A stretch of 62,591 nucleotides of DNA, filler included. It is 13 parts of 13 records of this genome, joined end to end, with 100 filler letters (N's around TTAATTAATTAA, not from the genome) between each part and the next. Parts side by side here need not be neighbours in the genome. Positions count along the whole stretch, not along the records: positions 1 to 5,145 come from SRR9670534_1647; 12 more parts are not named here. One strand, 5' to 3'. The notes under the pieces are model-generated. The model was not told where the DNA came from and searched no databases. It worked only from the letters and a program-made list of their open reading frames with translations. Shown here one piece after another: positions 1,866 to 47,936 of the stretch. Numbering within the stretch: the first letter of the stretch is position 1; each line of letters opens with the position of its first letter. The position numbers were made by a program, and so were the translations under genes.

Positions 1866-2126
1866 TGGCGACGTTTTCTATTTTAAGATTGTTAGCTTTA
1901 TAAAATTTAAGATTATTACATATTATTAATTAATAATGTATGAAGTTTGGTGATTTTTGAGTTATTATCGTTGTTATTATCATTAAAATTAATATTACAT
2001 AATAAATTATTACCAATAATTTACCTGTTTTGCCTTTTTTGCTCGTTATTTGCTTGATTGGTTTTATTTTTAATATTTCATCTTAAATTAATTCAAATAA
2101 TATGCACCAGTTGCCTTTTATAGGAA

Positions 2127-3953
2127 ATGTTCTCATCCATCAAAAATATTGTTACTGGAAAACTAGAATGGAAGGTCGTGGAAACTTCGGACTTTGCCTT
2201 AGAAATAGCCAGGTCAGCCTACGCAGACATGTTGCATGATCACGAAAGGAATTACAAATATGAAATTGCTTTATCAAATGTTATAAAGAATGTCAAAGAT
2301 AAAGTAGGCGTGAAAGACGTTAAAGTTTTAGATATTGGAACAGGAACCGGACTATTATCCATGATGGCAGCAAGACATGGTGCATCAAGGGTCTATGCTT
2401 GTGAATCCTTCAAGCCTATGGCAGACATAGCAAAAAACGTCATTTCTGCCAATGATTTTACAGATAAAATTGAATTGTACAACACTCATTCAACAAATTT
2501 ACAACTTTCTAAAAAATGTGACATTTTGGTAGCAGAACTCTTTGATACTGAACTAATTGGTGAAGGTGCCATCAGATCCTACAATGATGCTTGTCAAAGA
2601 CTTCTGAAAGAAAATCACTTTTTAATCCCCTATAAAGCAAAAATAATGTTGCAAGTTTTTGAAAGTCCTCATTTGTATAGATATCACAAGCATGATTCAG
2701 AATATCCTGCTCACTCTGTTTTGCATGATGTTCAACTAAGCCAAGTGAATTTTGAGACCGTTAAATTATTGTCCAAACCTTTTGAAACATTTGACTTTGA
2801 ATTTGGATCTGGTAATTCCAAATCATCGCACAAAATCATCGAAGTTGATTGTAATCAAACAGGAAAAGCTCATGGTGTATTTATGTGGTGGAAATTGATG
2901 ATGGATCCATTTGATGAAAGCAACATTTTAGATTGTTCTCCGCATACTGGACAATGGCGAGAGCATTGGTTGCAATCGGTATTTTATTTTGATGTTCCCG
3001 AAATTATTTCCGAAAATGACGTTTTTAATTTGACAGCATTTCATGATGAATACAGTTTGAAATTTTCGCTTGGTGATACCATTAGTCAAAGTCAACATCG
3101 AACAATTTGTAGCAGAAGTAGAGTAGCTCAATTGAATGATGATTATTTTTTAAACAAATTAAAATCATTTCTAAAGTCAAGAGATGTTCTTGCAATTGGT
3201 GAAATGTTTCCTTTAGACAATCAAACCGAAGTTATCAACAGTGAAACACCTGAAGAAAAGATACCGGATGGTAAGAAATATGATCTTGTTATCGGTGAAC
3301 CTTATACCAAAGAATCCTTTTTACCGTGGCATGATCTCCATTTCTGGTATTTTATAAATTACTTGAAAACGTCGAAGAATTGCCAATTTAACCAAATTTT
3401 ACCGGTGTCAGCATCGCTAAAAGTTGTCGCTGTTTCTTTCGTCAACTTGCATAAAATACGTCAGCAAGTTGATAAAGTTACTGCTAAAACTTCTTTTGAT
3501 ATCTCTTACTTTGGTAAAGTTATTGAAGGTGCAATAAATAAAGCGGACATGTATTGGGAAGGACATTACTTGTGGGAATATCCGTGTGATCTTTGCTCGA
3601 ACATTGAAAATGTCATAACTTTTGATTTTGCTTCACCTGTTTCTTCCATTTCTAAAGAAATAGACTTGTACATTTCTAGAGGTAGCGAAGTAAATGGTTT
3701 AGTTTGTTGGTTCGAATACGATTTTGGTGATGGTTTAAAATTCTCTAGGGGAATATTGCCTGATGATCAAATACCAGATTATTATAAATTTTACAAGGTT
3801 CACAAGAATGTTTTTTGGCATCCGTACCATCGTCAAGCGTGTCATTTATTTTCTAAAACCTTGAGCGATGAACGAGTTTTAAAATTAAGCTTTAATTTTT
3901 CTTCTGAGACTGGTGATGTTAGATTTGAGTTAGTGCAATCTAATGATTATTAA
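2127..3953 (+). CDS. PRMT7: Protein arginine N-methyltransferase 7, intronless, 608 aa
   Basis: EIARSAYADMLHDHERN, SAM-binding VLDIGTGTGLLSMM, double-E loop AELFDTELIGEG, WREHWLQ, and a degenerate second PRMT module (GEPY..SFLPWHDLHFWY, LWEYPC). Confidence 0.95.
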   Translation: MFSSIKNIVTGKLEWKVVETSDFALEIARSAYADMLHDHERNYKYEIALSNVIKNVKDKVGVKDVKVLDIGTGTGLLSMMAARHGASRVYACESFKPMADIAKNVISANDFTDKIELYNTHSTNLQLSKKCDILVAELFDTELIGEGAIRSYNDACQRLLKENHFLIPYKAKIMLQVFESPHLYRYHKHDSEYPAHSVLHDVQLSQVNFETVKLLSKPFETFDFEFGSGNSKSSHKIIEVDCNQTGKAHGVFMWWKLMMDPFDESNILDCSPHTGQWREHWLQSVFYFDVPEIISENDVFNLTAFHDEYSLKFSLGDTISQSQHRTICSRSRVAQLNDDYFLNKLKSFLKSRDVLAIGEMFPLDNQTEVINSETPEEKIPDGKKYDLVIGEPYTKESFLPWHDLHFWYFINYLKTSKNCQFNQILPVSASLKVVAVSFVNLHKIRQQVDKVTAKTSFDISYFGKVIEGAINKADMYWEGHYLWEYPCDLCSNIENVITFDFASPVSSISKEIDLYISRGSEVNGLVCWFEYDFGDGLKFSRGILPDDQIPDYYKFYKVHKNVFWHPYHRQACHLFSKTLSDERVLKLSFNFSSETGDVRFELVQSNDY

Positions 3954-3964
3954 TTTTTAGCCAT
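3954..3964 (+). promoter_or_regulatory. 11-nt intergenic spacer containing a 3' splice acceptor (TTTTTAG), candidate trans-splice site
   Basis: PRMT7 TAA (ends 3953) is followed by tttttag-ccat and then the REP ATG at 3965. Confidence 0.55.
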
Positions 3965-5075
3965 ATGGACCTAAGTGAACTTCCCAGACAATTTGACGCC
4001 GTCGTTTTTGGAACAGGTTTCGTACCAAAAAATTTATATGTATTATGTAACTACATATCTGTTACGTCATCATTTAGGCCCAACGCAATCTATAATAGCT
4101 GCAGCCTTGTCTAGACATGGTAAAACTATCTTGCATCTTGACCGGTATACTTATTTTATCTTTAAATTTTAAATTTCAATTTGAAAGATTAAATTTTACA
4201 AATTTTTGATTTTTTAGAAACCAGTTTTATAGTGCTGAAACGGCATCACTTGGTTTCACTCAAATTATTGAAATGACAACAAATAACATCATATCACAAG
4301 CGAGTAAAGGTGGTGACACTGAAAAAACTGAAAATATCCCATTCATTTATTCGGATGTCAAGGAAACATGGTCCCCTTCCATTACCGATGAAGAAAAAGA
4401 ATTTATAATTTCAAATTCGAGACGTTTTAGCTTTGACCTTGCACCCAAAGTTTTGTATAGCAAAGGTGATCTCGTTGAAATTCTTATTAAGTCCGGTGTG
4501 GCAAGATATTCAGAATTCAAGTGTTTAACACGAATTTTATTTTGGGATGATGATAAAAAGAAGTTCATAAAGGTGCCATGTTCAAAGAATGAAGTTTTTT
4601 CTGCTGCAGATTTTAATTTGAAAGAAAAACGACAAATTATGAGTTTTATTAAAGCTGTCAAGACTTCTTTTGAAGAAAACACATTAAATGCATCTGATTT
4701 TGGTATTTGATTTTCTTGAAAGTATGTTCAAGTTATCAATCTAATGTAATTTTTAGATACTTTTGATAATTTCTTGAGGCAACCACAATTTTCTCATATT
4801 TTGACGGACAAATTAGCTAAAGTGGTCTGCCAATCGATGGCAATGGTGGATGGTTCATCACCAAGTCAAATCGCTTTAGAAAAACTGAAGACATTTTTGG
4901 ATTCTTTAGGACGCTTTAATGGAAAAACGCCTTTTTTGTATACTATGTATGGGACTGGAGAGTTATTTCAGGGTTTTTGTAGATTATGTGCCATATTTGG
5001 TGGCATCTATTGTTTGGATAAAGATATCATTCAAATTTCAGAAGTTGAAAAGTCTGAGGAAGATGAATTTTCTAT
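3965..5075 (+). CDS. CHM: Rab escort protein (REP/CHM, GDI superfamily), 5' part; exons 3965-4016, 4078-4144, 4218-4702, 4757-5075; truncated by contig end
   Basis: Spliced translation MDLSELPRQFDAVVFGTGPTQSIIAAALSRHGKTILHLDRNQFY..., SRRFSFDLAPKVLYSKGDLVEILIKSGVARYSEFK, VPCSKNEVF, SLGRFNGKTPFLYTMYGTGELFQGFCRLCAIFGGIYCL. These motifs favour REP over GDI. Confidence 0.92.
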
Positions 5076-5145
5076 GTAAGCAATGCTTACTAAGCATACA
5101 TATATGAACTTTTTATTTAGGTAATAATACAAACATTTATTAACT

Positions 5146-5245
5146 NNNNNNNNNNNNNNNNNNNNNNNNNNNNNNNNNNNNNNNNNNNNTTAATTAATTA
5201 ANNNNNNNNNNNNNNNNNNNNNNNNNNNNNNNNNNNNNNNNNNNN
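5146..5245. other. Artificial contig-joining spacer N44-TTAATTAATTAA-N44 (first of 12; the others start at 7527, 12664, 15771, 20476, 23078, 28194, 33054, 35523, 42992, 57347, 59755)
   Basis: The same 100-nt block, with a palindromic six-frame-stop 12-mer, appears 12 times; genes are cut off at these points. Confidence 0.99.
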
Positions 5246-6903: not shown

Positions 6904-9099
6904 GTAAGTTCCAAGTTGAACTATATTTTCTAATTAATAAATACAATTGTATTGTGTTTTCTGACTCAGTATTACGTGAAATGTACAAAATTTTTAAAAT
7001 TAATAGCCTAGAAAGAGGAGAACGAAGCACACGTTAACTGGATTGCATAAACGAAAAAGACGTTCAGAACGCATACTTAATCATAAGCGTATTATGGTAA
7101 GACAGAATGCAAACAGCCCAATCAATGATGTTTTTGCTTCTCATGAGACATTGGTGACAATTTCTTATGCTTAAAATCCTCTAAAATCATATACTATTTA
7201 TCATAATGAAAATATTGATAGCTTATATTTTTATCAGGTTTCAAAATCATATTTGCATAAAAATTACTAACAATAGCTTTTTCATATGACCTTTATAGAA
7301 ACTATTTATGGTTGTTTATAAATCATACAAAAATAGGGCATATTATTAATATTTAATAAATATTTAATTAATATTTAATGAGTATTTAATATCAATCATA
7401 TTATTAATATTTAATAAATATCTAATATTAATTAATATTTTTATACTTTAAATAAATATATAATGAAATAAATTACTTATAAATATAATAAATAATATAA
7501 TATTATTATATAATTAATAATATGTTNNNNNNNNNNNNNNNNNNNNNNNNNNNNNNNNNNNNNNNNNNNNTTAATTAATTAANNNNNNNNNNNNNNNNNN
7601 NNNNNNNNNNNNNNNNNNNNNNNNNNCAACCCACAGGTTCCCTACATATACATATAGCCATACCAAATGTAAATTCTATGATAATATGTTTAAGTATTTT
7701 ATAATAAAATTAAAAATAATAATATATTAATTTACTAAATGCATAATATAAATATGTATAATAATATTTATTATATAAAACTTTTAAAATAAAACTAAAA
7801 AGAATAGGTAATATATACTTATAACTAAAAATAAAACTAAAAAGAATAATATATATTAGCACAGCAATTTGATGATAAATAGGAAATTAACATAATAGTT
7901 TATTTTATAAGCATTTTATTTTCTTAAGAAAATTTAGCTAAGATATAAGCATAAATATTCATGCACTAATCATTATTTAATAATGTCGAACTTTTTTAAC
8001 TACAACGTATCAATGTTAACTTTAAATATTTTTTATAGAGCACTTATTTGGTGTAAGTATTATAATAACAAAAAATGTTACTAATTATTATTAATTATTA
8101 CATATATACTTTTTAATAAGATAGCTATTTTATTAATAATCTTATTAATATTTATAAACAATAGTATATAATTCATATATGCTATTTTTTTATTTTTAAA
8201 CTTTGTATTGTTACAAAGCCACAATGTTTTTTCATAATTTAATATTACTCTATAACACATCTATTCTTAATAAGTAAATAAGCTAAATATTATTCATATG
8301 AAGTAATTACATTATAATTAAGCTTTATTTATCAGTAATAAACATCAAATTTGACATACCTAACCAATTTATAAATGAATGAACTTTTCCTAAATATTAC
8401 TATTAACAACAAACATCTTTTATTATCAACAGCAATGATAGGTATTTTAAACATTTTAAATAGTGTAGTGTAAATAGTTGAGAAAAGGTTCATTCAAATT
8501 AAATATAACATTATAATGTATATTAATAAGTTTTTTTATAAAAATATTGTAAATATATAATAATCTAAAAAATGAAAAACTATAAATATAAACTAATGTA
8601 TATTATAAAATAAAAAAAGATATTGAAATATATTGTTTTTTATTTTTAGTTTAATATAATATTAACAAAACTTTTCAAAATTATTATTGTTAAATAAAAG
8701 AATATTAACAGAATTATTTCACAAATAAATAAACTTTTTGCTTAATAATAAACATCACTTATTGTTATTGTATTAATGCTACATATTCTTACTCAAATAC
8801 ATCTACTTCATGATAACTTATTTGAAATAAACTTTTACTAAATATTACTATTAATAACAACAAAATCCTTTATTAATAATAATCATATAATCCAACTATA
8901 TAAATAGATTCCAAAAACCTCTGTAATACTAACAAGTATTGCTTATTATTAATAATAGGAACAAGTTCATGACATGACATAATGCTCATAGCTGCATAAC
9001 TATATTATTAATATGATAATAATAATAATAATAATGGATATTGATATACTTTACTGAAAATTTATTTGAATTACTAAATAGTGCTATACGTATGTAACT

Positions 9100-12624: not shown

Positions 12625-13398
12625 CTAAATTTAGCATTATTATTATTATTATTATTAATAATANNNNNNNNNNNNNNNNNNNNNNNNNNNNNNNNNNNNN
12701 NNNNNNNTTAATTAATTAANNNNNNNNNNNNNNNNNNNNNNNNNNNNNNNNNNNNNNNNNNNNTATAAATTATAAATTATAATTTATAATACATACATAT
12801 GTACTACATGTACGTATTAGGTATACATGTTTATGATACTGTAGTTAGGTTATGTCATTCATTAGGTGTACGCCATAACTATACGTAACCGAAATGCGGT
12901 TACCGCATTACATGCGAAGACTGTTACAGTCTGATTGTACCGAGTCGGTAACCAACATTATGTACTCGTACTATTGGTTCGGTACAGTCTTCGTCTTTGT
13001 ATTATTGGCAATAGTAGGTACAAAGACGTAGTACAAAGACGAAGACTATACCGAACTAGTAGTTTATTGCAGTCAGGTTTTGTTAGTTGTATAAATTATA
13101 ATAATGCTGGAGTAATATGCATAACGATGATACAGCTAGTAGCTACTAGTATAAATTGTACTGTACAATCATACGAATACATACCTACCTAATACATAAT
13201 TCGAATCGACGGCGTTGATACAATTTTTGCTAAATTACGTTTCTTTCCCATATATAAATCGAATTCACTGTGAATTATTCACACATGTAGCCTACGTAAT
13301 TTACAGTACTTACCTATATGTGTTCTCCGGTTAGCTCTATATTAATCAATAATCATAAGACCACTAGGTTTTCTCCTGTAGATCTATATTCGAATGTA

Positions 13399-15506
13399 AT
13401 GGTAATGAATAACACGGACAGAAGATTTCTCACTCAAAGTGACTGCTTACCAAAAATGTGCTATTTTTTGGCAAATAAGTTGAATCCTTTGTTGGGTTAC
13501 CTCAGAGCTCAGCAAGTTCTTCTCCAACCTGACATGAATAGATTTAAAAATTCAAAAGAGTCAATGTTCACATTGGTAACGAACTTATTTGACCTTATGA
13601 CGAAGCGCCAAAGAGCAAATGATGAGCCCGTCGTTGATAAATTAGCAAAATGTTTCGATCAAATGGGGCACAATCAGGTCGCAGGTTATGTTCGCAAAAG
13701 GGGCAAAAGTGAACTTGGTACACTTCTCAAATTTCCAGAAGTTTCTAAAGATGACAAAAGTCGACTGAATGAATGTTACGTTCAAGTTTCCAATTTAATA
13801 TTCGAAGATATTGATAGAAAATGTAAAAGTGAACTTCAACCAATTTTACCCGAATACAAACGAAAAGAAATTATTCAGCTTTCGGACAATGGTGAACGAA
13901 TGGACGCATTGATTGACGCTATTTTATTGTCCGATAATATCGATGCGGTAAATATCTTCGCAAATGCCTTGATTTTGGGATTTGGTGATGGGTCTATTAG
14001 AAATTGGTGTCCAAAGCTTTTTGAAGGAATACCATTGCATCATGGTGTACAAGAAAGTACACGAAATGTGGCGTCATCCCATCAACCAAGCGAGGACACA
14101 GATTCAGAACAGATTTTAAGGGACATAGAAGAACATTATGAACAAATGCTGCACTATCGAAATGATGCATGTCGTTTTGGAGAATTTCTCCTTTGTTTCT
14201 AAAAATAGTAACAAGCGAATTTCTCTTTAGGTACATGAAGATTATCCAGAAAAGTACATTCCATACGATCCTGTCAACAATACAATGGACGGAAGGCACG
14301 CGAAATATTACGGTCACGTCTTTATTATATGCAATATTAAGTATGGCGGTGAACATACAAGATTTGGGGGACAATTTGATCTGTCAAAATTAATTGTGGC
14401 TTTTCATCAAAGAAGATATTACGTTCATGCTCCTTATTGTGATTTTAGATCAAGACAGGTATCTTATTATGTATTGTTTATAATATTATTATAGTACTTC
14501 CTTTTATAGTGGGGTCCCTACCTCCGAGTTAAAAAAATTTACCCCCATCATGGCTATCAGCGCCATCTGTTTATCACCTATCTGATATCTCTCTTGTACT
14601 TTTCTGACTGATAAACAGATGGCGCTAACAATTTTGATGGCGCTAACAATTTTGATGGCGCCATCTACTTTGTAATAGCGCCATCTGTATGGTTGTTTCA
14701 AGCCTTATGATATTTTGTTATTATTAATTAGGCAGAAGCTTTTGAATACCGTATTGCATCAAATATAATTATAGGAAATGGATGCAATTTTGGCTGAAAT
14801 AAAACAAGTTGTTGACAATAATGACATGGGCTTATTTGTCCTTATAGTAATGGGGCATGGTGGTCACTCACTATATGACCAAAACATTGCTGACTCATGT
14901 CTTAAATTTGTAAGTACTGAGGAAGGAAATCCTGAGGAAGAACGTTCCATTTACCTTAGAGACATCTGCACTTATTTCAGTGATAGAGATTCCCCAAGAC
15001 TTAGGGGTGTTCCCAGGTGGTTTATTTGCAACATTTGCAGAAAACGTGAAACTCCTGCCATTGGAGATAATAATCGTGTATATCAAACTGATGTACAAGT
15101 TGATACACAGCCTTTCTATGAAAGAGCACCATCAGATCTGGAAAACAAGATTTTAGCTAATAGAAGAGATATGTTAATTTCATACTCTTGTGATGAAGGT
15201 TTTGATTGCTTCAGAAATGTTCATAATGGCTCCTTGTTCATTCAAAAAATTTGTCAAATTTTAATGAAACCTGAAAACAATCTTCTTCCAAGAATTTCTA
15301 TTACAGATGATATTTTGCTAAAGGTCATTTTTAATTTTTAAATAAATAAAAATTTTAATTTTGAAATTTTTTAGGTTAGTAGAGAGGTGCAGGAAGAACT
15401 TGCACGAGATGGGGACTTAACTGGACAATATTTGAGCCAAATTCCATGCTCTCTTAATCTTCTTGGAAAAAGGATATTTTTGCCTGAAGTCTCAATGACG
15501 TCATAA
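13399..15506 (+). CDS. Initiator-type caspase with two CARD-like prodomains; exons 13399-14166 (GC donor), 14231-14458, 14775-15323, 15375-15506
   Basis: N-terminus MVMNNTDRRFL resembles a caspase-9 CARD start. p20: GHVFIICNIKY..TRFGGQFD, IVMGHG (catalytic His), SPRLRGVPRWFICNICRK (catalytic Cys). p10: DMLISYSCDEGFDCFRNVHNGSLFIQKIC, KVSREV, QIPCSLNLLGKRIFL. Confidence 0.9.
14558..14687. repeat. Cluster of GATGGCGC/GCGCCATC motifs with an inverted repeat, in caspase intron 2
   Basis: AGCGCCATCTGTTTATCA (14559-14576) and TGATAAACAGATGGCGCT (14609-14626) form an inverted pair; two tandem AACAATTTTGATGGCGC units and a further TAGCGCCATCTG follow. Confidence 0.75.
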
Positions 15507-16769
15507 ACGCTAACATGTAATAATTATATTAAAATTTGTCTACCTTTATTTATAGACTCCCATTTTATAATTGCAATTGATATTGGTAAACTTTTTGGCG
15601 ACATCTATGTGTTCTCCACTTTAATCATATAGTCCTTTTATTGTATAGATTTTTTAGTTATGCTAGATTATTATTAATGTTCAATAATTGTTTATTAGAT
15701 TAATAATAAATAACAACAATTAAATTATTATTAATGTTTGCTGTCGTGGTGCAGTAATCCATATTCAAAANNNNNNNNNNNNNNNNNNNNNNNNNNNNNN
15801 NNNNNNNNNNNNNNTTAATTAATTAANNNNNNNNNNNNNNNNNNNNNNNNNNNNNNNNNNNNNNNNNNNNTGGCTCATTTCACGAATTGGTCGTAACAAT
15901 TATAAGCTAATACTGTCAGTCCATAACTTCACTATAAGTCTTATTATCAGTAAGCCTAGCATGCACTTAAATCCCTATTTCCATACAATGATAACTTACA
16001 TTATTGTTAGCAAGTTGCTATTATCATTAACTCTGATGTATAGGTAGATACTATTCTGTTACTGTTAAGTTTTCTATGGTAAAAAGTTTTTAAAAAACTG
16101 CTTTTATTATTATGAATAATAATAAACACTGAGAAACAGAATTAGCGGGAACACCCTTTTTCAATACATTTTCAACAACCATAGTTATAGGTACTAAGTT
16201 AGTACTACTAACTGAAAAAGGAAGCCTATAATATAGGCTCTATATCACAACTTTTCATATAGAACATAAAATAAAAACTAGCACGAAAGGTTGTAAAAAT
16301 TTTAATTTAATATAATTTTAAGTTTAAAAAATTCAACAAAATTTACAGTAAGAAAACAAAATAGCAACAGAAAATGGCGATTCTCTTCCCGCCAAGAGGT
16401 GTACCGGCTTATTGTGTTTATACTTGTAGATAATATACTAAATTAGTGTTACTAATATGACATTAAAATTATTGTCTTACAAACTTACAATTAGTATTTT
16501 GTGGTATATTACTTTCAATCTAGATGTGTTTTTATCATAAGTTTTATGCATGGTTTTGAATTTTTGTATCAAGTTCTAACTTATTCAAGAAAGATGTTAT
16601 AACGTGACGTTATAACGTCCTCGTTCAAGCTAGAAGTTGTATTACAACTTCTAACCTATTTTTTTAGGTCTGAACTTCAGACTCTGAATCAGATTATTAT
16701 TAAGTTCAGACTCTGAATCATTTATTATTACACTTACTAATCTCTTGATATCACATAGCATTTTTGATA

Positions 16770-18034
16770 ATGGAGCCATTTCCAGAGACCACAACACCTG
16801 TGCAAGAAATGACCATTCAGAGATATCTGTTTCAGAAATATTTGGCCATTTCAAATAAGGTGGCTTATTGGTTTAAGAGACCACATCTTCGCTGGCCAGG
16901 AGAAGTTCAAAACGAAAACAATAGAAATTGGTATACTACGGTATGGAGAAAGATTTGTCCCCACAGGGAAAGTTCATTGGTTCTGTCTACTAGAAGCGCA
17001 GATGGTAGTGAAATCAATTATGAGGAGCCCACAATTTTTCAAGACTTGCATAATATACAAGACCGCTTTGCAAACAACTTAGAAATTAGAACACTCAAGC
17101 AAAGATTTATAGGCGATAGTACTACTGCAACAACAATTGGATCTCGCACATTTCCTTCAAGCACGCGCGACCTACCAAACAACCTTGCAGATACACGTCT
17201 GCAGTTGTGCCACTTAATAGAGAGATTTCGGGAAAACTCGTTTTTTGCAGACGCATGGCATGGCTGTAGGAGAATATTTGCAAATATTTTGAATAGAATA
17301 GGTCGTAGGTGAGTATTACTCACTGAGTAATGCATACTTCATCCTAAAACAATTTGCAATGTAAATTTTACATTAGAAGTTTATGTAATCAGCGAACCCT
17401 TTTCAGGCACATTTGGTTAGATGTGCAAGGAGGTAGAACACCTGAATACAACCTAGCAAATGAAATAGGTCAGTCTAACTGAGTGAAATTACATATCATT
17501 ATATACAGAATCTGTACGGTACAGATACACATTGTTATAATAATATGATATCTGTAAAGTAGACACTTATTTCGTAGAAATACCTGTGATTTAGATAGTC
17601 CTATGCTGACATTGGATTTTGATTGTCATGCAATGTCTGCCAAAAGAATGTTTAGAGACCCCAATAAACCGATATTTGACAATGATCGTACAAAAAGCGA
17701 AACTATAGCACACCTAATTTACACAATTAGAGAATTATCCCAAAATGAAAGCAGCCAAAGAATTATGATGTTTGATGAAATTTGTCGAACACTTGATGGA
17801 CAACCAACTGAATATGAAGAAAATATTATAACCGCAAATACTGTGGTCAACCCGCGAAATCGATTACGTTTTCAAAACTTATTGTTCCATGATCCCCTTG
17901 ATCCCCTTCAATTTGAAGCGAGTGCAATACCTAATGAATGCAATATAAATTCCTTCTTAAAGGCATTGTTTCAGGCTTGCGATATAGCACTACATTACGC
18001 ACAAATCACCTCGGGATCAGAGTGGCCATTGTGA
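16770..18034 (+). CDS. Uncharacterised 3-exon protein (16770-17308, 17407-17468, 17595-18034), about 346 aa
   Basis: Two ORFs from the track are joined in frame through a 62-nt exon (RHIWLDVQGGRTPEYNLANEID) with canonical GTGAGT/GTCAGT donors. No family recognised. Confidence 0.7.
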
Positions 18035-18692
18035 TTCTATTCTTCCCACGTTTTTAATACAATAACAGAAGTATATTGTAGATAATAATCACATATTATG
18101 CATAGCTAATAGCTATTAGCTATTCGTATCATGAGCTTCATAATAATTATTCATTACTGTACGCCACATAAACAAGTTTAGTATTTTGTATTAAATTACT
18201 TATACGGTATAGGCTATACCATTTTAAAGTCTAACAATGTTTTTGAGTATTCTGCTGGCAATGTCAGCCTGGTATGTTTTTAGTTTTATTATTAATAATA
18301 AATAGCTATCATGTATTTAATTTTATTATAGGACAATTTTATTAGTAATAATATCTCTCATAGTGTAATGATAATCGGATTACACTGTAATCATAGGCTT
18401 TGGTTGCATGACTATCATAGGCTTTTGGTTTTCTAATATATTGTGAAATTAATAATAATTTCAAATTATAATCATCAAAATGTAATATCACATACTAGAA
18501 ATGTCATCATAACAAATGTCTGTGACGCTACGTGACATTGCTAGTAATGACAGTTACGTGAAATTGGTAGTAACAGTTTGTTACATCTTGATGACAAATG
18601 ACGTAACATTAAATATATAAGTAGCTTTTCTGTTGTAGGTAGGCGTTACAGGAAGAATGACCTATTAACAAAATTTAAGTTTGGTGCTTTGC

Positions 18693-20475
18693 ATGGAAAG
18701 CAATGAAATAACCAAAACCGCTACGGTATCGCTAAACGACAAGCTGTGGTTGGGTTACAATCTTGAAAGTATTATTGATGCGGTTACGTCCTATGGACTA
18801 AATAATTTCATAAACCAACTACTAGCAGCTGAAGACACTGGTGATGATCGTGATGTCATTTGTGCTTGTAAAGATATTATAATTGAAATTCGAGAAATCT
18901 ATGGGTCAGTTGGATTTGGATATCTTCTGAAGACAGTTATTTTGTCATCTAAAACATTGGCTTGTTTATTAAATATCAGACCATCAACTGAAGCAACTAT
19001 CCTGAAGATACATTCAGAAATACCTGAGAAAATTGAGAAGTGGCAGCAAGCTTTGATACTTGCAAAGATAGATGTTCTAGTTTCTTATCCAACACTATTC
19101 GATGAGCTGTCAGACCTGCTTTCGACTTTAGAAATTGAAAATTTTCACACAATCGCAAAAGTTCCAGTTGAGTGGAAGCGAACGTTAAGATTCCTTGATA
19201 CACTTGTTGAAACAAATAGCAAATCTATTTTTGATGAATTTATTAACATTTTGAAGAATATTGGAGCATCAAACTTTGCTAGGTAATTTGACAATACAGT
19301 ATAAATTATAGGAATACGACTAATTGTAAACGTTTTTGTTGCATAGATTGCTAGAACAGTGTTCACAGACTGCAATTGACACCTTTACCACTGAAAATGT
19401 AAATATTACTTCTTCCCAAATTATTGGAATGGGTGGTGAAGCAATAATTTATCGGTTAAATTTGCAAAATTATGGTGACGCTGTCTTTCGAAAAGTAGAT
19501 CCTTTACCTAGAGCTTGGTCCAATGTGTTAGATAAAAAAGATGAATCTATAGTTCTGAAAGAAATAAGAAAATATGAACTCCTGCTCTTAAAATTTAGCT
19601 TACATCCTAACTGTGTTGCCATTTATGGAAATGTGATAGAACCAGGTCATTATGGTATTGTTATGGAATATTTGGAAAAAGGCAACTTGAAGGACTACCT
19701 ATGCATGTTGAATATAAAATCTGAGCAAAGTATATCTGTTAAACAAAAGCTGAAATGGTGCTTTCAAATTGCCTCTGCTTTAAAATTTTTGCATGGATAT
19801 GAACCAATAGTAGTTCATGGTGATATAAAATGCAGTAACTGCCTATTAGCAGATCCAGGTTTAACAGTGAAACTATCCGATTTCAATGGAAGCCAATTTC
19901 ATAACATGACACTTAGCAACTTAGGTTCAGAAAGAAAAAAGTTTACACCAACACATTGTCCTCCAGAAGTGCTAAGAGGTAGCAAATATGAATTCGCAGC
20001 TGATGTGTATTCTTTTGGAATTTCTACAGTTGAAATGTTTTTTCCTGAAGACATAGAACCTCACAAGAGTAAATTTCCACTGGTGTTAGATTTGATCAGT
20101 ACTGAAATTCGGTCCAATGATGTTGATCCAATTGAAAGTATGATCAATGAGTTACCACAAGCAAGACCAAGCACTACGTTAACTTACAAGACTTTTAAGA
20201 AACTTCTGTTACTGTGTGAACAACCTATGAAGGATTTGTCAAACTCAAAAAAGATAAGTATGCTGCTAATTTTGGTACATATAAATATTATAGGTTTAAC
20301 TTATTATTAATAAAGTATGGCTATCTTAATAAAATAAAGATTATACTGCATAATTTATACATGGTGTAAAAAATAATTAAAACAATAATACAATACTTTT
20401 AGAAAAGGACACTATACTTGAATTTCCCTTTCAAGCGAAAATCGGCGTGGATATCGTAAATCTAATGTTGCAAGC
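18693..20475 (+). CDS. Tandem death-fold (CARD-like) plus TKL/RIPK-like protein kinase; exons 18693-19282, 19347-20257, 20403-contig end (partial)
   Basis: CARD-like KWQQALILAK...LRFLDTLVETNSKSIFDEFINILKNIGASNFARLL. Kinase motifs IGMGGEAIIY, HPNCVAIYG, YGIVMEYLEKGNL, HGDIKCSNCLL, KLSDFNGS, THCPPE, ADVYSFG. Confidence 0.85.
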
Positions 20476-23563: not shown

Positions 23564-26500
23564 GAAATATCTGACCAAATTTATTCCACAATGAAAAAAG
23601 CTGATGAATTGGGTACTAAGGGTGATACACATGGGCAAAAAGCTGAAATAATTAATGAATTGTACAAGGTTAATAACAGATTTCAAGCCAGAGTTAATGA
23701 GTATAAAACTTTGCTGAATATGTCAGTTAGATTCTTCAAGAGCCTAGATCAGGTACCTTATAATTGTTGTTATTTAATAATATAAATGGCACATGACTAT
23801 TGTATTTTAATAAAAACTTTAACTTGAAATTTTCAAGTAACCAATACAAACTTTTAGTTGGATAATATTATTCAAACTACGCAAAAAACTTATTCTGAGC
23901 ATTGCTGTCCTAAAGACCTTTTATTGGCAGAGAAAGAGTTAAGTGATCATAATAAAGAGAAAGAAAAAATCCAAGATTTCTTTGGCAGAACTTTTAATGA
24001 AGGGGAGGAAATTGTTATGCGTGTTAGACAGCAAAGTTCTGAAGCCTTAGCAAGGCAAGATGTCGCAAATATAATAAATCTGGCCGAACAGAGAAAGGCT
24101 AGTTTTGATAGAACATGGGAATCGCAAAAGAAAAGGCTTGTAGACAATATCAAATATTGCCAATTTGTAGATTTGTTGGGTGAAGTGTACAAAGACATAG
24201 ATAACTTTATGAACGTTGTTCATCAACAGAAGAAGGCTACAGTTTCTGGAACAGCATTTACGCAGCTTAAAACTCATATTGATATCGTTGACAAAAAAAT
24301 TGAAAACGTTATTGAGGTGGCAAATTCATTGATAGCAGATGACCATGGCAACAAAGACCAAATTGAAAAGGACAAAGATGATCTTAATAAGAAACGCTCA
24401 CTTTTCCATACAACAGTTAATGAATACGGAACATCTGTGGATAAAGGAGGGATTTACGAAGCGCTTGTTAATGAAGTTCAAGTGTGGAATGAGCAAATGA
24501 ACCAGATTATGGTAAATGTTGACAACGAAAGTAATAAGTTGAAAGAGCCTCAAGGTCTTCAAAAATTAATTGACGTAGTTGATACAGCAATTAATAGTGG
24601 AAAGGATAAACCTGAACAGCTTAAGCAAATTTCAGAACATGCTGTGGAGATTTATGGACCAAACGCCCAAAATCAAATTCAGCCTCTTGTTTATCAAACG
24701 CAGGAGACATTTCAAAACATTAACAATCTTAAGGCTTCCTTGGTGGCAATTCAAGCTGAAGTGGCAAATAAACCTCCTCTTGAAGAAGTTATCAAGTTGC
24801 AAGAAATTGATACCATTATTGAAAAGAAAGAAACCGATGAAAAAATGATGCAACCTATAAAAGCAGATGATCAAGAAATACCTATTATGAAGGTTATAAT
24901 TGGTGACGAAGAATCAGCACCAAGTCAAACTGCTCGGCCAAGTATTGAAGAAATAATAAACAGTGCTCCTGAATCTATTTCAGTATTTGAAGAAGTTGGT
25001 TATCCAGTATTGGTACAACCTAAAAAAGGAGGACCGGTGATGTTGCATCCAGACATGCCTGCAGAAGGAGAAGTAGTAACTTTTGAAGAAGTTGAAGTTA
25101 CAGAATCAGTAAAAGGGATTTTTGACATTCAAACTGAACCTTTATCAGAGCCTTCAGCAGTACCTTCGACTGTTCCTGAAAAAATTCCTCAATCCTTGTC
25201 TGAAGCCATGGCTCCATCTGCGGCTATAGTTCCATTAGCTCCTCCCCTTTCATACCCTGAAATGCCTTTGTCTGCTGAAGGAGAAGATGTAGTTTATGAA
25301 GATGTTGAAGTTTCAGAAACAGTAGATGGGACATTTGATGTTCAAACTGTGCCGTCAAATGTCTCTGTGTCTCAAGAACCTCAGCAGATCACTCCGATTG
25401 CTGGTGCAGAAGGAGAAGTTGTAACTTTTGAGGAAGTTGAAGTTACAGAAACAGTAGATGGACAATTCGACGTTCAAACTGTGCCTTCAACAATGCAGTT
25501 ACCTTCAACTACCGCTGTGACAACTCCTCAACCTGCTACTCAAGCACCTCAAGAAGTATCTGCAGTTACTGCACCACATCCAGTAGCTCCGCCTATCTTT
25601 GTTAAGGAATTAAAAAGTGCTCAAGTTCTTGAAGGCAACAAGTAAGTATTGAAGTTCATTATAAAGAATTTTATTATATAGCCCTACTGTATATTTTTGA
25701 CATTATTATTCTATTTGTAGGCATAGATTTGTTTGTCAACTTGAACCACACGTTCAAGCTCAAGTCACTTGGTATAAGGATGGAATTCTAATCGTTAATC
25801 CTGATTACATCGTTAATGTTGAAAATGGTGTTTGTACTCTGATTATAGAGGAAACTTTTAGCGAGGATACTGCAAAGTTTTCATGTCGTGCAACAAATGA
25901 ATTAGGTACAGCAGAAACGTCTGCTTTTCTAAAGGTTATAGAATCTGAACGACCACAGCTTATATCACCAGATTTTATCAAAACATTGGAAAGTAAAGAA
26001 GTTTTGGAAGGTCAAAAAGTAACATTTGAATGTGAAGTACTGGGCTTTCCAAAACCAGAAATATCATGGTTTAAAAATAGCACACAATTAATGGACTGTC
26101 AAGAATTTTCTATCACAGAAGCTGAAAACAGATGTTTGTTAACCATCAATCCGACTAAGAAACAACCGCATGAAGGACGGTATACTTGTAAAGCTGTTAA
26201 CAGAATGGGAGAAGCCAATTCTTCTGCAGTTTTGGCAGTCAGGAGTATGGGAAAAATTCTTAATAACAATATAATATAGTAATACTAGAATTAAAATACG
26301 TTAATATAATTGTATGAATAGCTTTGTATGAATTTTATTAATAATAAAGAAGATACTAGAGCGCTAGATTTAATAACAGATAGTCTATAATAATTATATG
26401 AACATTTGTTATAGAACAACCATTAGCCAGACAGCCTGAAAAACCAAAAATAATCGAAGGATTGAAACCAAATTATCAGGCATTAGTAGGCAAACCTATT

Positions 26501-28193
26501 CGAATGAACTGCAGATATGAAGGCTATCCAGAAGTGGAAATTGTTTGGTCAAAGGATGATCTTCCTTTGAAAAGTACACCAGATTTGCGAATTGTGATTG
26601 AATTAGGTAATACAGCGGTTGAAATTAAGAAAGCAAATCCTGAACAAGCAGGAACCTATGCGGTAACAATCAAAAATGATCAAGGACAAGTTTCACAACG
26701 TTCAGAGTTAATAATAAATGTTCCGAAAAAGGGTACTCCAGACGTGGAGACGTTTAAACCAAAGTTAACTTCACCATTGAAAGATACTAGAATCACTCAA
26801 GGTCATAGAGCAGAATTCGATTGCACAATTATCGGACAACCAGAACCAGAAGTCATATGGTATCATAATGATAATCCCGTAAAAGAGTCCGAAAATTGCA
26901 AATTACTTTTTCAAAATGATTCTTGTCAAATGGTTATTCACAAGGCTTCTCAGACTGATGCTGGGCGATACAAGATTAGGGCTGTGAATGCTCTTGGGGA
27001 ATGTGCTAGTCAAGCAAATCTTTATGTGGAAGGTTAGTAGGTCTATAATAACAAAGGAAACAGATGTCGCTAGCATTTACGCGAAAACTCTTTTTGTAAT
27101 TTAGTTGAACCAATGCAATTCAAGCTACCACCAATTACAAAGCATGAAGCTAAGTCTGGAAGCCCACCTAGATTTATTCAAGTAATTCATGACTATGTCG
27201 GAAGTGAGGGTTATCCTCTGAGGATGGCATGTAGAGTTGTTGGAAATCCTCCACCACAAGTAAAATGGTTTAAGGATGATTCTGAAATAAAGAACTCTTC
27301 AGACTTTCAAGTACAATTATTTATAATACCTACTTATTATTAAACAAACAATTCTTATATTATTAATATAACAACTGTTTCAGATGAGTAAGCATCACGA
27401 TACCCATACTATGGCAATTTCTGAACCTTTTCCTGAAGACTCTGGTAATTATACAGTGAAGGCATTTAACCCTATTGGTGAAGCAAAATCATATGCAAAG
27501 GTTATTATAAAGCCTAAGGGTAGGTTAATAAAATAATTCTAAAGAAAGACGTGATTATTAATAATCTATTTGTTACATTTTTATTTTAGAACAAGTCGCT
27601 ACTAAAATTATCACCAGATCTGACGTAGTTCACTCTCCTCCTGAATTTAAGCTTCTTTTTCATGATTTATACGTTAAGCCAGGAGAACCAGCTTTGCTTG
27701 AATGTATTGTGACAGGAATACCAAAGCCACGTGTACATTGGACTAAAGACAACGGTCCTATTACTAGTCCAGAAATAAAAGTTAAGATGGAAGGTGACAA
27801 GCATACACTGTTGATACCTGAGTCATTTGAAGAGGATGCAGGCAGATACTCCATACACGCTGAAAACATGTCAGGCAGAGCAACAAATTCTGCTGTTTTG
27901 TATGTTGGTGATCAATATGAGGGCGGGCAGAAAACTCCTGACGAATATTTAAAGCTCCCTACTGCACAAGCAAGGCCAGATTTTAGTACGTCATTAGTGA
28001 GGCAAGTTCACCAAGAGCCTCTTCGTAGTCCCATAACATCTGAAAAAATATTTTCTCCCACAAAAATGCTTACCCACGAAGGACCCCATTTCAAGCCAGT
28101 TCAATTTAATGTAGAAAAACCTGTCCCACCCAAGTTTATTCAGCCCTTGCATTCAGTTATTGCAGCTGAAGGTCAAAGGGTTGTTTTAGAAGC
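23564..28193 (+). CDS. Invertebrate titin-family muscle protein (zormin/sallimus-like), multi-exon fragment: spectrin-like repeats, Pro/Glu/Val-rich linker, multiple I-set Ig domains
   Basis: Helical spectrin-like repeats at 23564-24780, a PEVK-like linker, then Ig domains such as NPDYIVNVENGVCTLIIEETFSEDTAKFSCRATN, ECEVLGFPKPEISWFK, DCTIIGQPEPEVIWYH, ACRVVGNPPPQVKWFK, ECIVTGIPKPRVHW. Truncated at both ends. Confidence 0.88.
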
Positions 28194-36297: not shown

Positions 36298-39200
36298 ATG
36301 TCAAGAATTAACCAATCATACAACAGAAACAATCAGTATTCCAGCAACCACAATGGATCAAGAAATGAGGATTTGGCAACAACTGTTAAAGAATTGAAGA
36401 AAGAATTGCAAGAGTGCAGCGATTTTTTCTCTCAATGAATTCAGAATAATTTCAAGGCTATAGCACAGAATACCGAACAACTATATATAGATGTGAGAAG
36501 ATCACAGCAAGTGCAGTCTGGCATAATTAAGATACTCTGCGAGATGCAGAAAATCCTCCACAAAGGAGAGTTGGTTCTGAAGGGTATGATAGAAGAAATC
36601 AGAGAGTCAAAGGAGAATTTGATGGCTATTACAGCTGAAAAACTTCAATGTGTAACAGAACTAACAGATTGGCGTAAACAAATCTACAATGTCAAGAGAT
36701 ATGGGCAAAACTTTCTAGGCCATAAAACCTTTAGGCCTATACACATAAAGCTCAAGGATTTAACCCTCTCTGCATTGATTATGGCTGAAGCATTTGCAAA
36801 AAGATCTCCAGAGGTCAGAATCTAACATTTCATTCTAACGATAAGGAAGATGATGATCCAATATAGCATTAGAAATGGATTAGTATCTAAGGGTACTAAT
36901 ATGGCCAACTTACCAATAATCAATGGAATCTTGCATTATGGTAATAAAGGCTTGGTCAGTGCGGATGCAGTGTTTGTTTTAGCTATTACGAACTATAAAA
37001 AGTAACATTTTCCAGCTAGCAATTTTGTGGGTAATCCAGCAGCAGATGTCGATACTGTAATTTTGGCAACTACAGGGCAAATGGCAGACACTTTGCAGCA
37101 AAACATAATGATGAACAATAATGCAATGGTACCACTAGCATTGGATGTAATTTTGTTATTAAGTAGGCTGACATATGACTCACCTTCAAGAGAGGTTGCT
37201 GATGATGATAACCAACGAAAACCAAGACCAAGATTCAGGGATACATCAAGAAGAAGAACTAGTAGAGGTTATGCAAGCAGGAGCAAATTAAGAGATAGAC
37301 ATTGCAGAACAAGGAGCAAATTGAGAGGAAGGAGCAAGAATAGAAGGAGAAGTCATAGCAGGCTCAATATACGTGAACTCAGCTATAAACGAAGTTCAAA
37401 AGAGAGATCTTTCAAGAGAAACAAAAGGTGCAGATCTAGGTCTGGCTCTGAAAGTGTTGAAGGGCACAACAAAAGAAAGAGAAGAAGCAGCAAGAATAAT
37501 GACAAAAATACCTTGGCAGGGCTAGATAATGAATCTGTGAGAATTCTTTCGTATTTAGCAAAAGACCTGTCGAAAAAGAAGGTTAAAGAATGAGAAAGGT
37601 TAAAATCTCCTCCATAGACCCCTATAATTACAAGACCCCCTACAGTTAATAGTGTGGTCAAGCTGGTTAACAAAGAACCGCTGAAAGAGATATCGAATCT
37701 AAGCAAAGTGATGAGCAAAACTAGCTCCAATGTTACTGATGTCATCAACCTGATATCAGTGGATGATGTGGTTAATCAAAGCAACTCCAATGGCCCTATA
37801 ATGAAATTAACCCCCAAAGATAAGCCCCAGTCTGTCGATGAAGTAGTTAATGGTACCTATAACAAGTCAAGTTCTGGAAATGGTTCTGGTTCCGATTGAC
37901 TATATGGCAGACACAAAAACAAGCAAAAAATCACCTGCAATATTTCTGTAAATAAAAATAGCCTTACATGTAACCTGAAAGCCCTAGTAATTAATGCAAA
38001 ATCTCTCATCTTCTGGAAAAGAAAGCAAGCTTTTGAAGTTAAACTGTTAAATCCTCAGACTTTATAGCAGTATGTAAAACATGGCACTGTGAAGCAACAT
38101 TTGCAAGTATAACATTCTATGGATACGATTCTTATGCAAATGGGCATCCTGAAGAAGATGACAATGGTTCTCTAAATTGTGGTAGTGTAGTACTTCTGGT
38201 ATCCAGCAAATGGTGCAGCAAACAAGTATCCTTACCTGATGGGATATCAAAGAATGCAAGAGAAAATATACTGTTAGTAGAAGCCATAATTGCAGGTACC
38301 ATGATTTTAATTATTGTTATGTATAATGCACCTTATGGCAGCTGATATTGATTTGGCTAGATTGACCTTGCTAAAATATTAAAGCACTGTGTCAATTCTG
38401 GCTATGATCAATTTTTGCTATATGGTGACATCAATAGAAATGACTCAAAATCGCATGCAATGGAGAAATATATTCTAGAATCATGTTTATATTTCTGTTC
38501 CCTAAATTCACTATTAGATGAATTAGAGGAAACAAAAATGTTCATTGCTCATTCAAAAAATATCACCCACAATAAGGCTTTATTAGATAATATCGCAAAT
38601 TTAGCCTACTCTGATGATGATAATAATCCAATGTTAGATCATGGAATTTTTTGTTACAATTTTAAATTAAAATCTGAGGAACCATCTGTCAAAATATCTA
38701 ACACAGAATCAGTTCACCCATTGTTACAGCCTGAAGTGGCTAATAATATTAGCAATAATGAAAAATTGTACAAACTATTTAAAACTATAGGTTCTTATAA
38801 CGTCAATAGATATAGTGATGAAGACATCCTAATGGCTTTCAAACATATTGATTTTAAAGATTGTTGCATGGGTAACATGGAGATTGACACTCTGAATTTT
38901 TACTTAAATATAGCCACAGGATTACATAATCTTGGAGATGGCCAAACTGCATGGAAAAGGAAGATGTCACTGTCTATAAGCCCTGAGAGTAGTAACTTAT
39001 TGCAAAAGTTACACTTTAAACTAAGACACAGTAAACCTATACCTGATGAACTATATCATAAAATTATTGAAAGCTTAAAATTGGATCAGTAAGTTGTAAA
39101 CAATCACATAAAAGGTAATGGAAGAAGATTAACAGAAGTTTATGAGCACTTAAGGAAAAAAAAACCCAAGAAACTACCTGTGTTGATAACAGATGATAAT

Positions 39201-47774: not shown

Positions 47775-47936
47775 AAAACCAATAAATATTCTATTGAATG
47801 TTTCTTAATCGTTGTTTGCTGTATTTAGTACAGTGTATTAGGGATTTCTTAATTTTTCTCTTTTCTGACCATGTATTTGTACGGAATTCATTTCATTTGT
47901 CAAGTGACTTTTTTTCAGGTCTGGTTTTTAAGATAG
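47775..47936 (+). promoter_or_regulatory. 162-nt RBM5-twinfilin intergenic region: polyA signal, U-rich tract, TTTTTTTCAG acceptor
   Basis: AATAAA at 47770 and 47781, a T-rich stretch, and an acceptor AG at 47917-47918, 18 nt before the twinfilin ATG. Confidence 0.55.

Follow-up and report, generated by a model that had tools for sequence, protein, structure and literature searches.

A Candidate Spacer-Less, Trans-Spliced Operon Formed by PRMT7 and a Rab Escort Protein Gene

Operons in which one gene follows another without a spacer are a kind already known from Ciona, Oikopleura and the spliced-leader 1 (SL1)-type operons of C. elegans, as described in the parts of the sources used here. In Ciona intestinalis, 16 of 18 operons without intercistronic DNA had no canonical AATAAA in the upstream cistron, and it was proposed that their processing events are either coupled or exclude one another (Satou et al. 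2006, PMC1488885, in the part consulted). The SL1-type operons of C. elegans are without, or nearly without, sequence between their cistrons, and the trans-splice site lies by the end of the upstream gene (parts of PMC1488885 and PMC7986045), and the three characterised ones carry AATAAA in the upstream cistron (PMC1488885). According to the same portions of these works, the operons of Oikopleura dioica have spacers of 23-30 nt and upstream cistrons without AATAAA (PMC1488885, PMC7986045). The nematode SL2-type is built otherwise: its intercistronic regions span some 100-130 nt from the poly(A) site to the trans-splice site, and a Ur element (TAYYTT) is found roughly 50 nt upstream, as given in part of PMC7668243; an operon of Hydra is described as having taken in a horizontally transferred gene (PMC3273482, in the part consulted).

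The locus studied here lies at the beginning of the window, the whole stretch of 62,591 nt of DNA that was analysed. On its plus strand, a gene for a small membrane protein (209-1865, exons 209-325, 986-1124 and 1648-1865, stop codon 1863-1865) is followed, after a spacer of 261 nt (1866-2126), by PRMT7 (2127-3953), a complete ORF that runs through 608 codons and a stop without any intron, with its ATG at 2127 and its TAA at 3951-3953. After a gap of only 11 nt (3954-3964), consisting of five T, an AG (3959-3960) and four bases, the ATG of a Rab escort protein (REP) gene is found at 3965-3967, and exons 1-4 of this gene (3965-4016, 4078-4144, 4218-4702 and 4757-5075) occupy the positions up to 5075. 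The exon defined by this AG would start at 3961, 4 nt 5' of the REP ATG, and the PRMT7 stop is placed 5 nt before the AG. These coordinates were obtained both by direct reading and with scripts, and they bear out the 11-nt separation of PRMT7 and REP and the 261 nt from the co-oriented upstream stop to the PRMT7 ATG that had been proposed in the original prediction.

The ORF of REP is read in another frame than that of PRMT7, (3965-2127) mod 3 being 2, and this, together with the match of both termini to homologues, indicates that the locus holds two distinct, complete and unrelated genes, co-oriented and arranged head to tail. Neither a promoter nor a 3'UTR or poly(A) signal would fit between them, as had also been claimed for this junction: none of the eight poly(A) hexamers tested is present over positions 3840-3964, which comprise the last ~120 nt of PRMT7 and the gap, and the first such hexamer past the PRMT7 stop is an ATTAAA at 4188, already within REP intron 2. 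A fusion or readthrough product of PRMT7 and REP was considered separately and rejected, because the frames differ and the PRMT7 frame meets another stop past the 11-nt gap.

The identity of PRMT7 is supported by Pfam matches to PRMT_C and methyltransferase domains, and by the best database matches, all of them named PRMT7, at 32-35% identity. The protein aligns with the PRMT7 of mouse (4c4a, E 5.9e-81) and of C. elegans (3wst, E 1.2e-69) from residue 5-6 up to query residue 607, which corresponds to chain residue 654 of 655, and this nearly end-to-end alignment to solved PRMT7 structures shows that its start and stop are genuine. It has two tandem methyltransferase modules, in which the SAM motif and the double-E loop are conserved in the structure-chain alignment. 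In the downstream gene, exons 3 and 4 match the GDI family of Pfam, and exon 3 is closer to REP-1 (1vg0/1ltx, E 4.2e-19) than to GDI (E 2.1e-9), so by sequence similarity the product is assigned as a Rab escort protein rather than a Rab GDI. A search of exon 3 against the longer proteins of a large protein database gave no match. Exon 2 matches positions 13-39 of the 436 of the GDI profile (weakly, E 0.065), a position that makes the 17-codon exon 1 the N-terminus. The REP gene is cut by the end of the contig at 5145, and three introns interrupt the 926 nt of coding sequence present. Regarding the upstream gene, hydrophobic ORFs in three exons with GT/AG borders were recognised; it had been called NACHO (TMEM35) earlier, and its exons, searched singly, gave no significant match in Pfam or PDB.

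To score the splice sites, an acceptor weight matrix was built from 16 internal acceptors of four genes of the same window. The AG at 3959-3960 reached a score of 4.83, equalled or exceeded at only 40 of the 125,142 positions of both strands and expected by chance 0.0035 times in 11 nt; the 16 real acceptors, each left out in turn, had a median score of about 1.0. The 3' acceptor announced for the PRMT7-REP gap is thus present, and it is strong. The one announced for PRMT7 is also found in place, with its AG at 2122-2123, 3 nt before the ATG, and it proved to be weak, with a score of -2.2 and 0.39 such sites expected per 30 nt, in such a way that taken alone it is no more than chance. Before the upstream gene, a strong acceptor-like site with a score of 4.1 lies 26 nt ahead of the ATG. 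When eight start codons chosen by the analyst were compared with all ATG triplets, using this same-window matrix and thresholds that were inspected post hoc, an acceptor-like site scoring at least -2.36 was found within 30 nt upstream of seven of the eight starts and of 930 of 2579 ATGs (36%, P=0.004), and at a threshold of 1.0 the figures were 4/8 and 260/2579 (P=0.005). A cruder acceptor rule gave five of the eight start codons against 313 of 2586 ATGs.

The other spacers of the window were also studied. That between the upstream gene and PRMT7 (1866-2126) contains an AATAAA at 2001, 123 nt before the exon start at 2124, a T-rich stretch at 2058-2081 and a TAYYTT at 2065, which is 59 nt before the PRMT7 acceptor and is expected 0.12 times per 40 nt. 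A direct repeat with 81-nt spacing (1989-2038 and 2070-2119) was noticed in the same region upstream of PRMT7. A second tight co-oriented pair (43557-50525, plus strand) is located on another contig and consists of an RBM5/10-like gene (ATG 43557, stop 47772-47774) and twinfilin (ATG 47937, stop about 50523-50525); the 162-nt spacer of this pair has AATAAA at 47770 and 47781, a T-rich stretch at 47845 and an AG at 47918-47919; this acceptor scores 3.5, 18 nt before the twinfilin ATG, and AATAAA lies 139 nt before it. T-rich stretches are found 55-75 nt before the acceptor in both of these longer spacers, and TAYYTT in one of the two, the spacer upstream of PRMT7. All five adjacent pairs of recognised genes, on two multi-gene contigs, are co-oriented, and the genome in this window is not compact: introns reach about 1.2 kb, remnants of retrotransposons are present, and 1.5-3.6 kb separate genes elsewhere. 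With its habit of placing acceptors before ATGs and its second operon-like pair, the window resembles what an organism with trans-splicing would show.

The best reading of the locus, held tentatively and with a confidence just short of even, is that of a polycistronic precursor resolved by spliced-leader (SL) trans-splicing. Having no room for a promoter in the gap, the REP pre-mRNA must begin within or upstream of PRMT7, and REP is probably read from a transcript shared with PRMT7. RNA polymerase II would run through PRMT7 after a start that probably lies at the upstream gene for the membrane protein or ahead of it, and the 5' end of the REP mRNA would most likely be made by splicing at 3960/3961, at the AG 3959-3960, with the branch point and pyrimidine tract falling within the last PRMT7 codons. 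The likeliest donor would be an SL RNA, making the unit an operon with essentially no intercistronic region; we infer co-transcription, usage of the acceptor and the trans (SL) character of the splice. With the branch point and tract so placed and no poly(A) signal before the acceptor, each precursor would either couple the formation of the PRMT7 3' end to the trans-splicing of REP or undergo just one of the two, as in the proposal for Ciona. The trans-spliced operon of the original prediction is partly supported, in what concerns gene completeness, spacing and the REP acceptor; on the other side, an Rfam search found no SL RNA in these 62.6 kb, either at the gathering threshold or with E up to 5. 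The tRNA search of the window found none, and a literature search for an operon of PRMT7 and a Rab escort protein yielded, among the papers listed, none that dealt with these two genes together.

The host is probably a fast-evolving ecdysozoan, nematode or arthropod, judging from protein similarities. The nearest LRR clusters comprised three from Nematoda and seven from Arthropoda, and one exon has mostly insects among its named relatives; insects are not known to trans-splice, and both things together count against the SL reading. The ecdysozoan affinities make a nematode origin possible, and in a nematode the PRMT7-REP arrangement would be ordinary. PRMT7 itself remains unplaced, on a long branch of 1.7 (FastTree, 121 rows) or 2.37 (IQ-TREE C20, 36 rows), and the tunicate PRMT7s cluster with those of vertebrates, away from the window protein. 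Its deletion runs are shared with the PRMT7 of Plectus in 4 of 13 cases, and only a bivalve protein, probably mis-modelled, shares more, a signal that is too weak, and a kinase exon gave distant TKL/IRAK-like matches only, which are taxonomically uninformative. That the host might be an ecdysozoan outside the SL-using groups (not a nematode, copepod or amphipod), with a true spacer-less SL operon that captured a cDNA-derived PRMT7, is a long shot; if so, it would imply an independent origin of Ciona-type operons, or ecdysozoan trans-splicing and operons far older than accepted.

Such a capture touches on the structure of PRMT7 itself. L001, which with up to 45% identity is the closest relative that was found, carries a PRMT7 interrupted by introns and split in seven frame pieces, and this PRMT7 is followed by a thioredoxin/PITH gene and not by REP, so the PRMT7-REP adjacency is not conserved, as judged from this one usable relative, the sequence of L002 being too short for the comparison. 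The 608 codons without intron, in front of the introns of L001 PRMT7 and of the neighbouring REP, are a retrogene feature; among the other hallmarks, no A-tract was found after the PRMT7 stop and no direct repeat flanking 2127-3953. The intron-free state suggests that PRMT7 arrived or was remodelled here via a cDNA intermediate, and that it may be expressed through its membership of the unit.

Mid-scoring GT donors were found at 1950 and 3913, which would allow cis-splicing to the same acceptors, and two explanations make use of them. In one, a shared promoter would produce a noncoding first exon joined alternatively to 2123/2124 for PRMT7 or to 3960/3961 for REP, so that PRMT7, itself without introns, would sit inside the first intron of REP; one leader spliced to two coding sequences was already the alternative named in the original prediction. 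The AG sites directly before both ATGs agree with this, as does the intron-free PRMT7, like the nested gene of the model; the donor at 1950 scores 1.1, near the median of real donors, although donors reaching that median are expected by chance about 0.004 times per nt, and the PRMT7 acceptor is weak. An alternative leader needs no trans-splicing and suits an arthropod origin, but the PRMT7 3' end would still be needed inside REP, where the ATTAAA at 4188 is the first hexamer, and the acceptor-like sites at most starts and the RBM5-twinfilin pair are left unexplained. We consider it unlikely, yet still to be taken seriously. The other donor would serve a REP promoter located inside the PRMT7 coding region, with overlapping independent transcripts and a leader that either is unspliced or loses a mini-intron of 48 nt (3913-3960). 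The size of this intron is close to that of the shortest ones here (51-61 nt), and a CTAAT branch-like motif is found 17-21 nt before the AG; the GT at 3913 scores 1.2, which is nevertheless at chance level. Such a promoter would have to occupy conserved coding sequence, a leader begun upstream of 3913 includes the ATG at 3868 and earlier ones, and an ATG-free unspliced leader must start at most 21 nt from the REP ATG, in such a way that this explanation appears distinctly unlikely.

Two further explanations dispense with splicing at the junction. REP might be translated from a mature dicistronic mRNA, by termination-reinitiation or internal entry. Leaky scanning is excluded, as 46 ATG triplets precede the REP start on an unprocessed dicistronic mRNA, and the presence of so strong an acceptor in the gap would have to be accidental (0.0035 expected). 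The core of TURBS-like upstream elements is TGGGA, and this core is absent from 3750-3953. Such absence is relevant since the known cases of reinitiation downstream of long ORFs depend on a particular upstream element, even if the 11 nt from stop to start fit the limit of at most 20 nt described for viral reinitiation after long ORFs (both in the part consulted of PMC10275272), and we regard this mode of expression as very unlikely. Finally, two loci could have been wrongly joined or collapsed at the PRMT7/REP border. The assembly is very fragmented, with linkers connecting the 13 contigs of the window, each some 2-14 kb long, but the junction lies within a single contig (1-5145), no repeat was found at the border, and it reads cleanly as stop, acceptor and start, so an artefact is hardly probable at all.

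If the SL trans-spliced operon is confirmed, the locus would illustrate very cleanly how a eukaryotic operon can lack any intercistronic region, in that the last PRMT7 codons double as the splice signal of REP. It would also provide a probable case of a promoter-less, intron-free gene copy expressed via a polycistronic unit, and would place SL trans-splicing among the processes used by this fast-evolving ecdysozoan. Regarding annotation, gene starts would have to be set at acceptors, and gene models would run the risk of wrong fusion.

In the cholinergic locus, the gene of the vesicular acetylcholine transporter is nested in the first intron of the choline acetyltransferase gene, and both share the first exon. 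The locus described here resembles it in having an intron-free gene that lies, on the same strand, just upstream of the exon with the ATG of another gene, acceptors preceding both ATGs, and differs from it in that no shared first exon was identified here and that PRMT7 and REP have no known functional link. The operons described above can be compared in the same way, within what the consulted parts of the sources report. The two longer spacers of the window recall those of the nematode SL2-type, being T-rich and with AATAAA 123 and 139 nt before the acceptor and TAYYTT in one of them, which is weak motif evidence, whereas the PRMT7-REP junction has no such spacer. With Oikopleura dioica the junction shares a very short spacer and an upstream cistron without AATAAA, in another taxon and in a genome that is not compact. 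The likeness to the SL1-type operons of C. elegans is in the near-zero spacer and in a possible ecdysozoan host, and the difference is in the AATAAA of the upstream cistron, since none of the eight hexamers was found here in 3840-3964. The arrangement in Ciona is alike in the juxtaposition of unrelated co-oriented genes, in the acceptor at the boundary and in the lack of AATAAA near the end of the upstream cistron; here, no poly(A) hexamer lies within 40 nt of the boundary and the cistrons are juxtaposed at the AG. Unlike this locus, which is known from genomic sequence, those of Ciona had the SL and the poly(A) site mapped with cDNA; moreover, the host here is not a tunicate, and the 3'UTR of PRMT7 would be of only about 7 nt. 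As to Hydra, it is a cnidarian, and the intron-free state is the sole sign of cDNA origin here, but its operon, where a promoter-less arrival came to be expressed by joining a trans-spliced unit, offers a model for the capture of an intron-free PRMT7.

Two of the genes on the first contig (1-5145) are separated by only 11 nt, and the original prediction had read them, a PRMT7 gene and a Rab escort protein (REP) gene, as members of a candidate trans-spliced operon with an upstream gene called NACHO. Re-reading and a scripted check confirmed all of its coordinates. PRMT7 is a single open frame from the ATG at 2127 to the TAA at 3951-3953, the 11-base gap (3954-3964) holds a T run and an AG at 3959-3960, and the REP ATG lies at 3965; the preceding co-oriented gene (209-1865) has its stop at 1863-1865, 261 nt ahead of PRMT7. 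The NACHO identity of this three-exon membrane protein was not confirmed, with no significant match in exon-wise Pfam and PDB searches.

That PRMT7 and REP are two separate real genes is borne out by their domains, homologue alignments and differing frames. The PRMT7 protein (608 residues) has PRMT_C and methyltransferase domains (Pfam), its best database matches with a source name are all named PRMT7 (32-35% identity), and it aligns to PRMT7 from mouse (E 5.9e-81) and C. elegans (E 1.2e-69), the alignment beginning at residue 5-6 and ending with query residue 607 opposite residue 654 of a 655-residue chain; the SAM motif and the double-E loop are both preserved. As the alignment with solved homologues runs nearly end to end, the PRMT7 start and stop are genuine. 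The REP exons belong to the GDI family (Pfam); with E 4.2e-19 for REP-1 and E 2.1e-9 for GDI, exon 3 is nearer to the former. Exon 2 matches positions 13-39 of the 436 of the GDI profile (weakly, E 0.065), in such a way that the 17-codon exon 1 is the N-terminus, with no coding exon further upstream. The differing frames, together with a second stop in the PRMT7 frame just past the gap, rule out a fusion or readthrough protein.

Acceptors were scored with a weight matrix trained on the window itself, using 16 internal acceptors from four of its genes. It gave the REP acceptor 4.83, real sites left out in turn ranging from -6.3 to 6.7 (median around 1.0); counting both strands, only 40 of 125,142 positions reach this score, with 0.0035 expected in 11 nt. 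Before PRMT7, the predicted AG is indeed present at 2122-2123, 3 nt ahead of the ATG, but its score of -2.2 is at chance level (0.39 expected per 30 nt), so that alone it provides no evidence. None of eight poly(A) signal hexamers was found in 3840-3964. The last PRMT7 codons must contain the REP acceptor's branch point and pyrimidine tract and, as there is no room for a promoter between the genes, we firmly infer that the REP pre-mRNA begins inside or upstream of PRMT7. The arrangement is genuine and beyond chance.

With two complete co-oriented genes and a strong acceptor, the operon is the most likely reading, although unproven: PRMT7 and REP would form a spacer-less polycistronic unit with spliced-leader trans-splicing at 3961, a proposal that we give slightly under an even chance. 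A candidate donor at 1950 (score 1.1) could instead provide a shared cis-spliced leader, leaving PRMT7 nested in the first intron of REP, which is unlikely, although the sequence by itself is compatible with either trans- or cis-splicing. A start within PRMT7 could also come from an internal promoter, with or without a 48-nt mini-intron (3913-3960), and this seems more doubtful still. The 11-nt distance matches viral reinitiation cases described in the available extracts of the literature, as expected if REP were translated by termination-reinitiation from an unprocessed dicistronic mRNA; however, 46 ATGs precede the REP start, the TGGGA core is absent from 3750-3953 and a strong acceptor occupies the gap, making this improbable. 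Misassembly at the PRMT7/REP border has the smallest probability, a very slight one.

Acceptor-like sites were also sought within 30 nt upstream of eight starts whose position homology or a signal peptide could fix (those of the upstream gene, PRMT7, REP, CARD-caspase, LRR protein, RBM5/10-like, twinfilin and GPCR). In this small sample, chosen by ourselves and with thresholds inspected after the fact, seven of the eight had one at the lenient threshold versus 930 of all 2579 ATGs (P=0.004), and four versus 260 of 2579 at the strict one (P=0.005); a cruder pyrimidine-count rule gave 5/8 versus 313/2586, two start coordinates being 2 nt off in that count. Recognised neighbouring genes form five pairs, each with both members in the same orientation. 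A second operon-like pair, RBM5/10-like and twinfilin (43557-50525, same strand), lies on another contig and is 162 nt apart: AATAAA occurs at 47770 and 47781, at the RBM5/10-like stop (47772-47774), followed by a T-rich stretch, and the twinfilin ATG (47937) has an acceptor AG at 47918-47919 (score 3.5), 18 nt ahead. The spacer before PRMT7 has a like layout: relative to its acceptor site, TAYYTT is 59 nt upstream and AATAAA (at 2001) 123 nt upstream. This spacer also contains a 50-nt direct repeat (1989-2038 and 2070-2119, 74% identity, 81 nt apart), whose first copy bears the AATAAA and whose second ends at the PRMT7 acceptor.

The DNA is animal and AT-rich (GC 21-41% in 2-kb steps over 62,591 bases). 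Its 13 contigs, of about 2-14 kb, are separated at 5146-5245, 7527-7626, 12664-12763 and nine more places by twelve copies of one 100-base linker (a 12-base word with stops in every frame, flanked on either side by 44 N); inter-contig order and orientation are meaningless, and the PRMT7/REP finding is confined to the first contig. Two decayed retrotransposon copies with RVT_1 domains and many broken frames (36439-41262, plus strand, E 5.2e-25; 58734-59714, minus strand, E 8e-11) indicate that the genome is not compact. Short palindromic GTAC/TA-rich low-complexity repeats, with numerous inverted-repeat pairs, crowd introns and flanks (1-208, 330-985, 1130-1647, 43090-44890). Other genes are the CARD-caspase (13300-15338), a long gene whose last exon encodes a divergent TKL/IRAK-like kinase (16749-20307), and an activin-receptor ectodomain gene (52005-53162; Pfam E 1.2e-4) with a single membrane span and a short tail lacking a kinase domain, which we take to resemble a BAMBI-type pseudoreceptor. 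Its ATG, at about 52005 and outside the scored set, has a similar acceptor look by eye. A twinfilin intron holds a C/D-box snoRNA-like element (49104-49189; Rfam SNORD51, 33.5 bits, E 0.055, under the gathering score of 50), with a seemingly similar stretch, by eye, around 120 nt downstream.

A metagenome scan gave two environmental PRMT7 relatives, L001, whose identity reaches 45% across 353 aligned columns, and L002. In L001, PRMT7 (70-2736) is divided into seven frame pieces by at least 6 introns, so that the intron-free state of PRMT7 in the window is derived. Its stop is overlapped by AATAAA, and a thioredoxin+PITH gene (2950-4320), with an acceptor-like AG 16 nt upstream of its ATG, lies 213 nt 3' of it; thus, the PRMT7-REP adjacency is not conserved. 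A second PITH-like gene is found further downstream. REP itself carries introns, three of them in the first 926 bases of its coding sequence. A cDNA-mediated origin of the intron-free PRMT7 is plausible; inspection of the locus revealed neither a poly(A) tract nor a target-site duplication flanking it.

The window PRMT7 has a very long, unplaced branch (1.7 in FastTree, 121 rows; 2.37 in IQ-TREE with a site-heterogeneous model, 36 rows), outside the cluster that tunicate and vertebrate PRMT7s form in both trees. L001 and L002 cluster with a nematode, chelicerates and pancrustaceans (SH-aLRT 87, IQ-TREE). A 595-residue exon of a spectrin-repeat and multi-Ig muscle-type protein (23858-27340; kin named unc-89 or CCDC141 in arthropods) has 37 relatives among 1.84 billion representatives; 20 were looked up, of which eight have a named source (five insects, one scorpion, one amphioxus, one flatworm), the best three named matches being insects. 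For the LRR protein, the nearest ten Atlas clusters listed are three from Nematoda and seven from Arthropoda. These affinities point to a probable ecdysozoan host that evolves fast, either a nematode or an arthropod. Which of the two matters because, to our knowledge, all nematodes trans-splice, whereas the documentation covers, among arthropods, only copepods (PMC4664967). Amphipods trans-splice as well. Interest would rise if the host lay outside known trans-splicing lineages.

Nematode intercistronic regions have a median of 129 bp and a Ur motif around 50 bp upstream, according to the available portion of PMC7668243, distances similar to those in the two longer spacers of the window, although TAYYTT is present in just one of these. 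In C. elegans SL1-type operons, as far as the available sources describe them, upstream cistrons bear AATAAA, unlike PRMT7. Spacer-less operons are already known as a kind, and the arrangement read for PRMT7-REP resembles those described in Oikopleura and in Ciona; for the latter, PMC1488885 counts 16 upstream cistrons out of 18 with no AATAAA within 40 nt.
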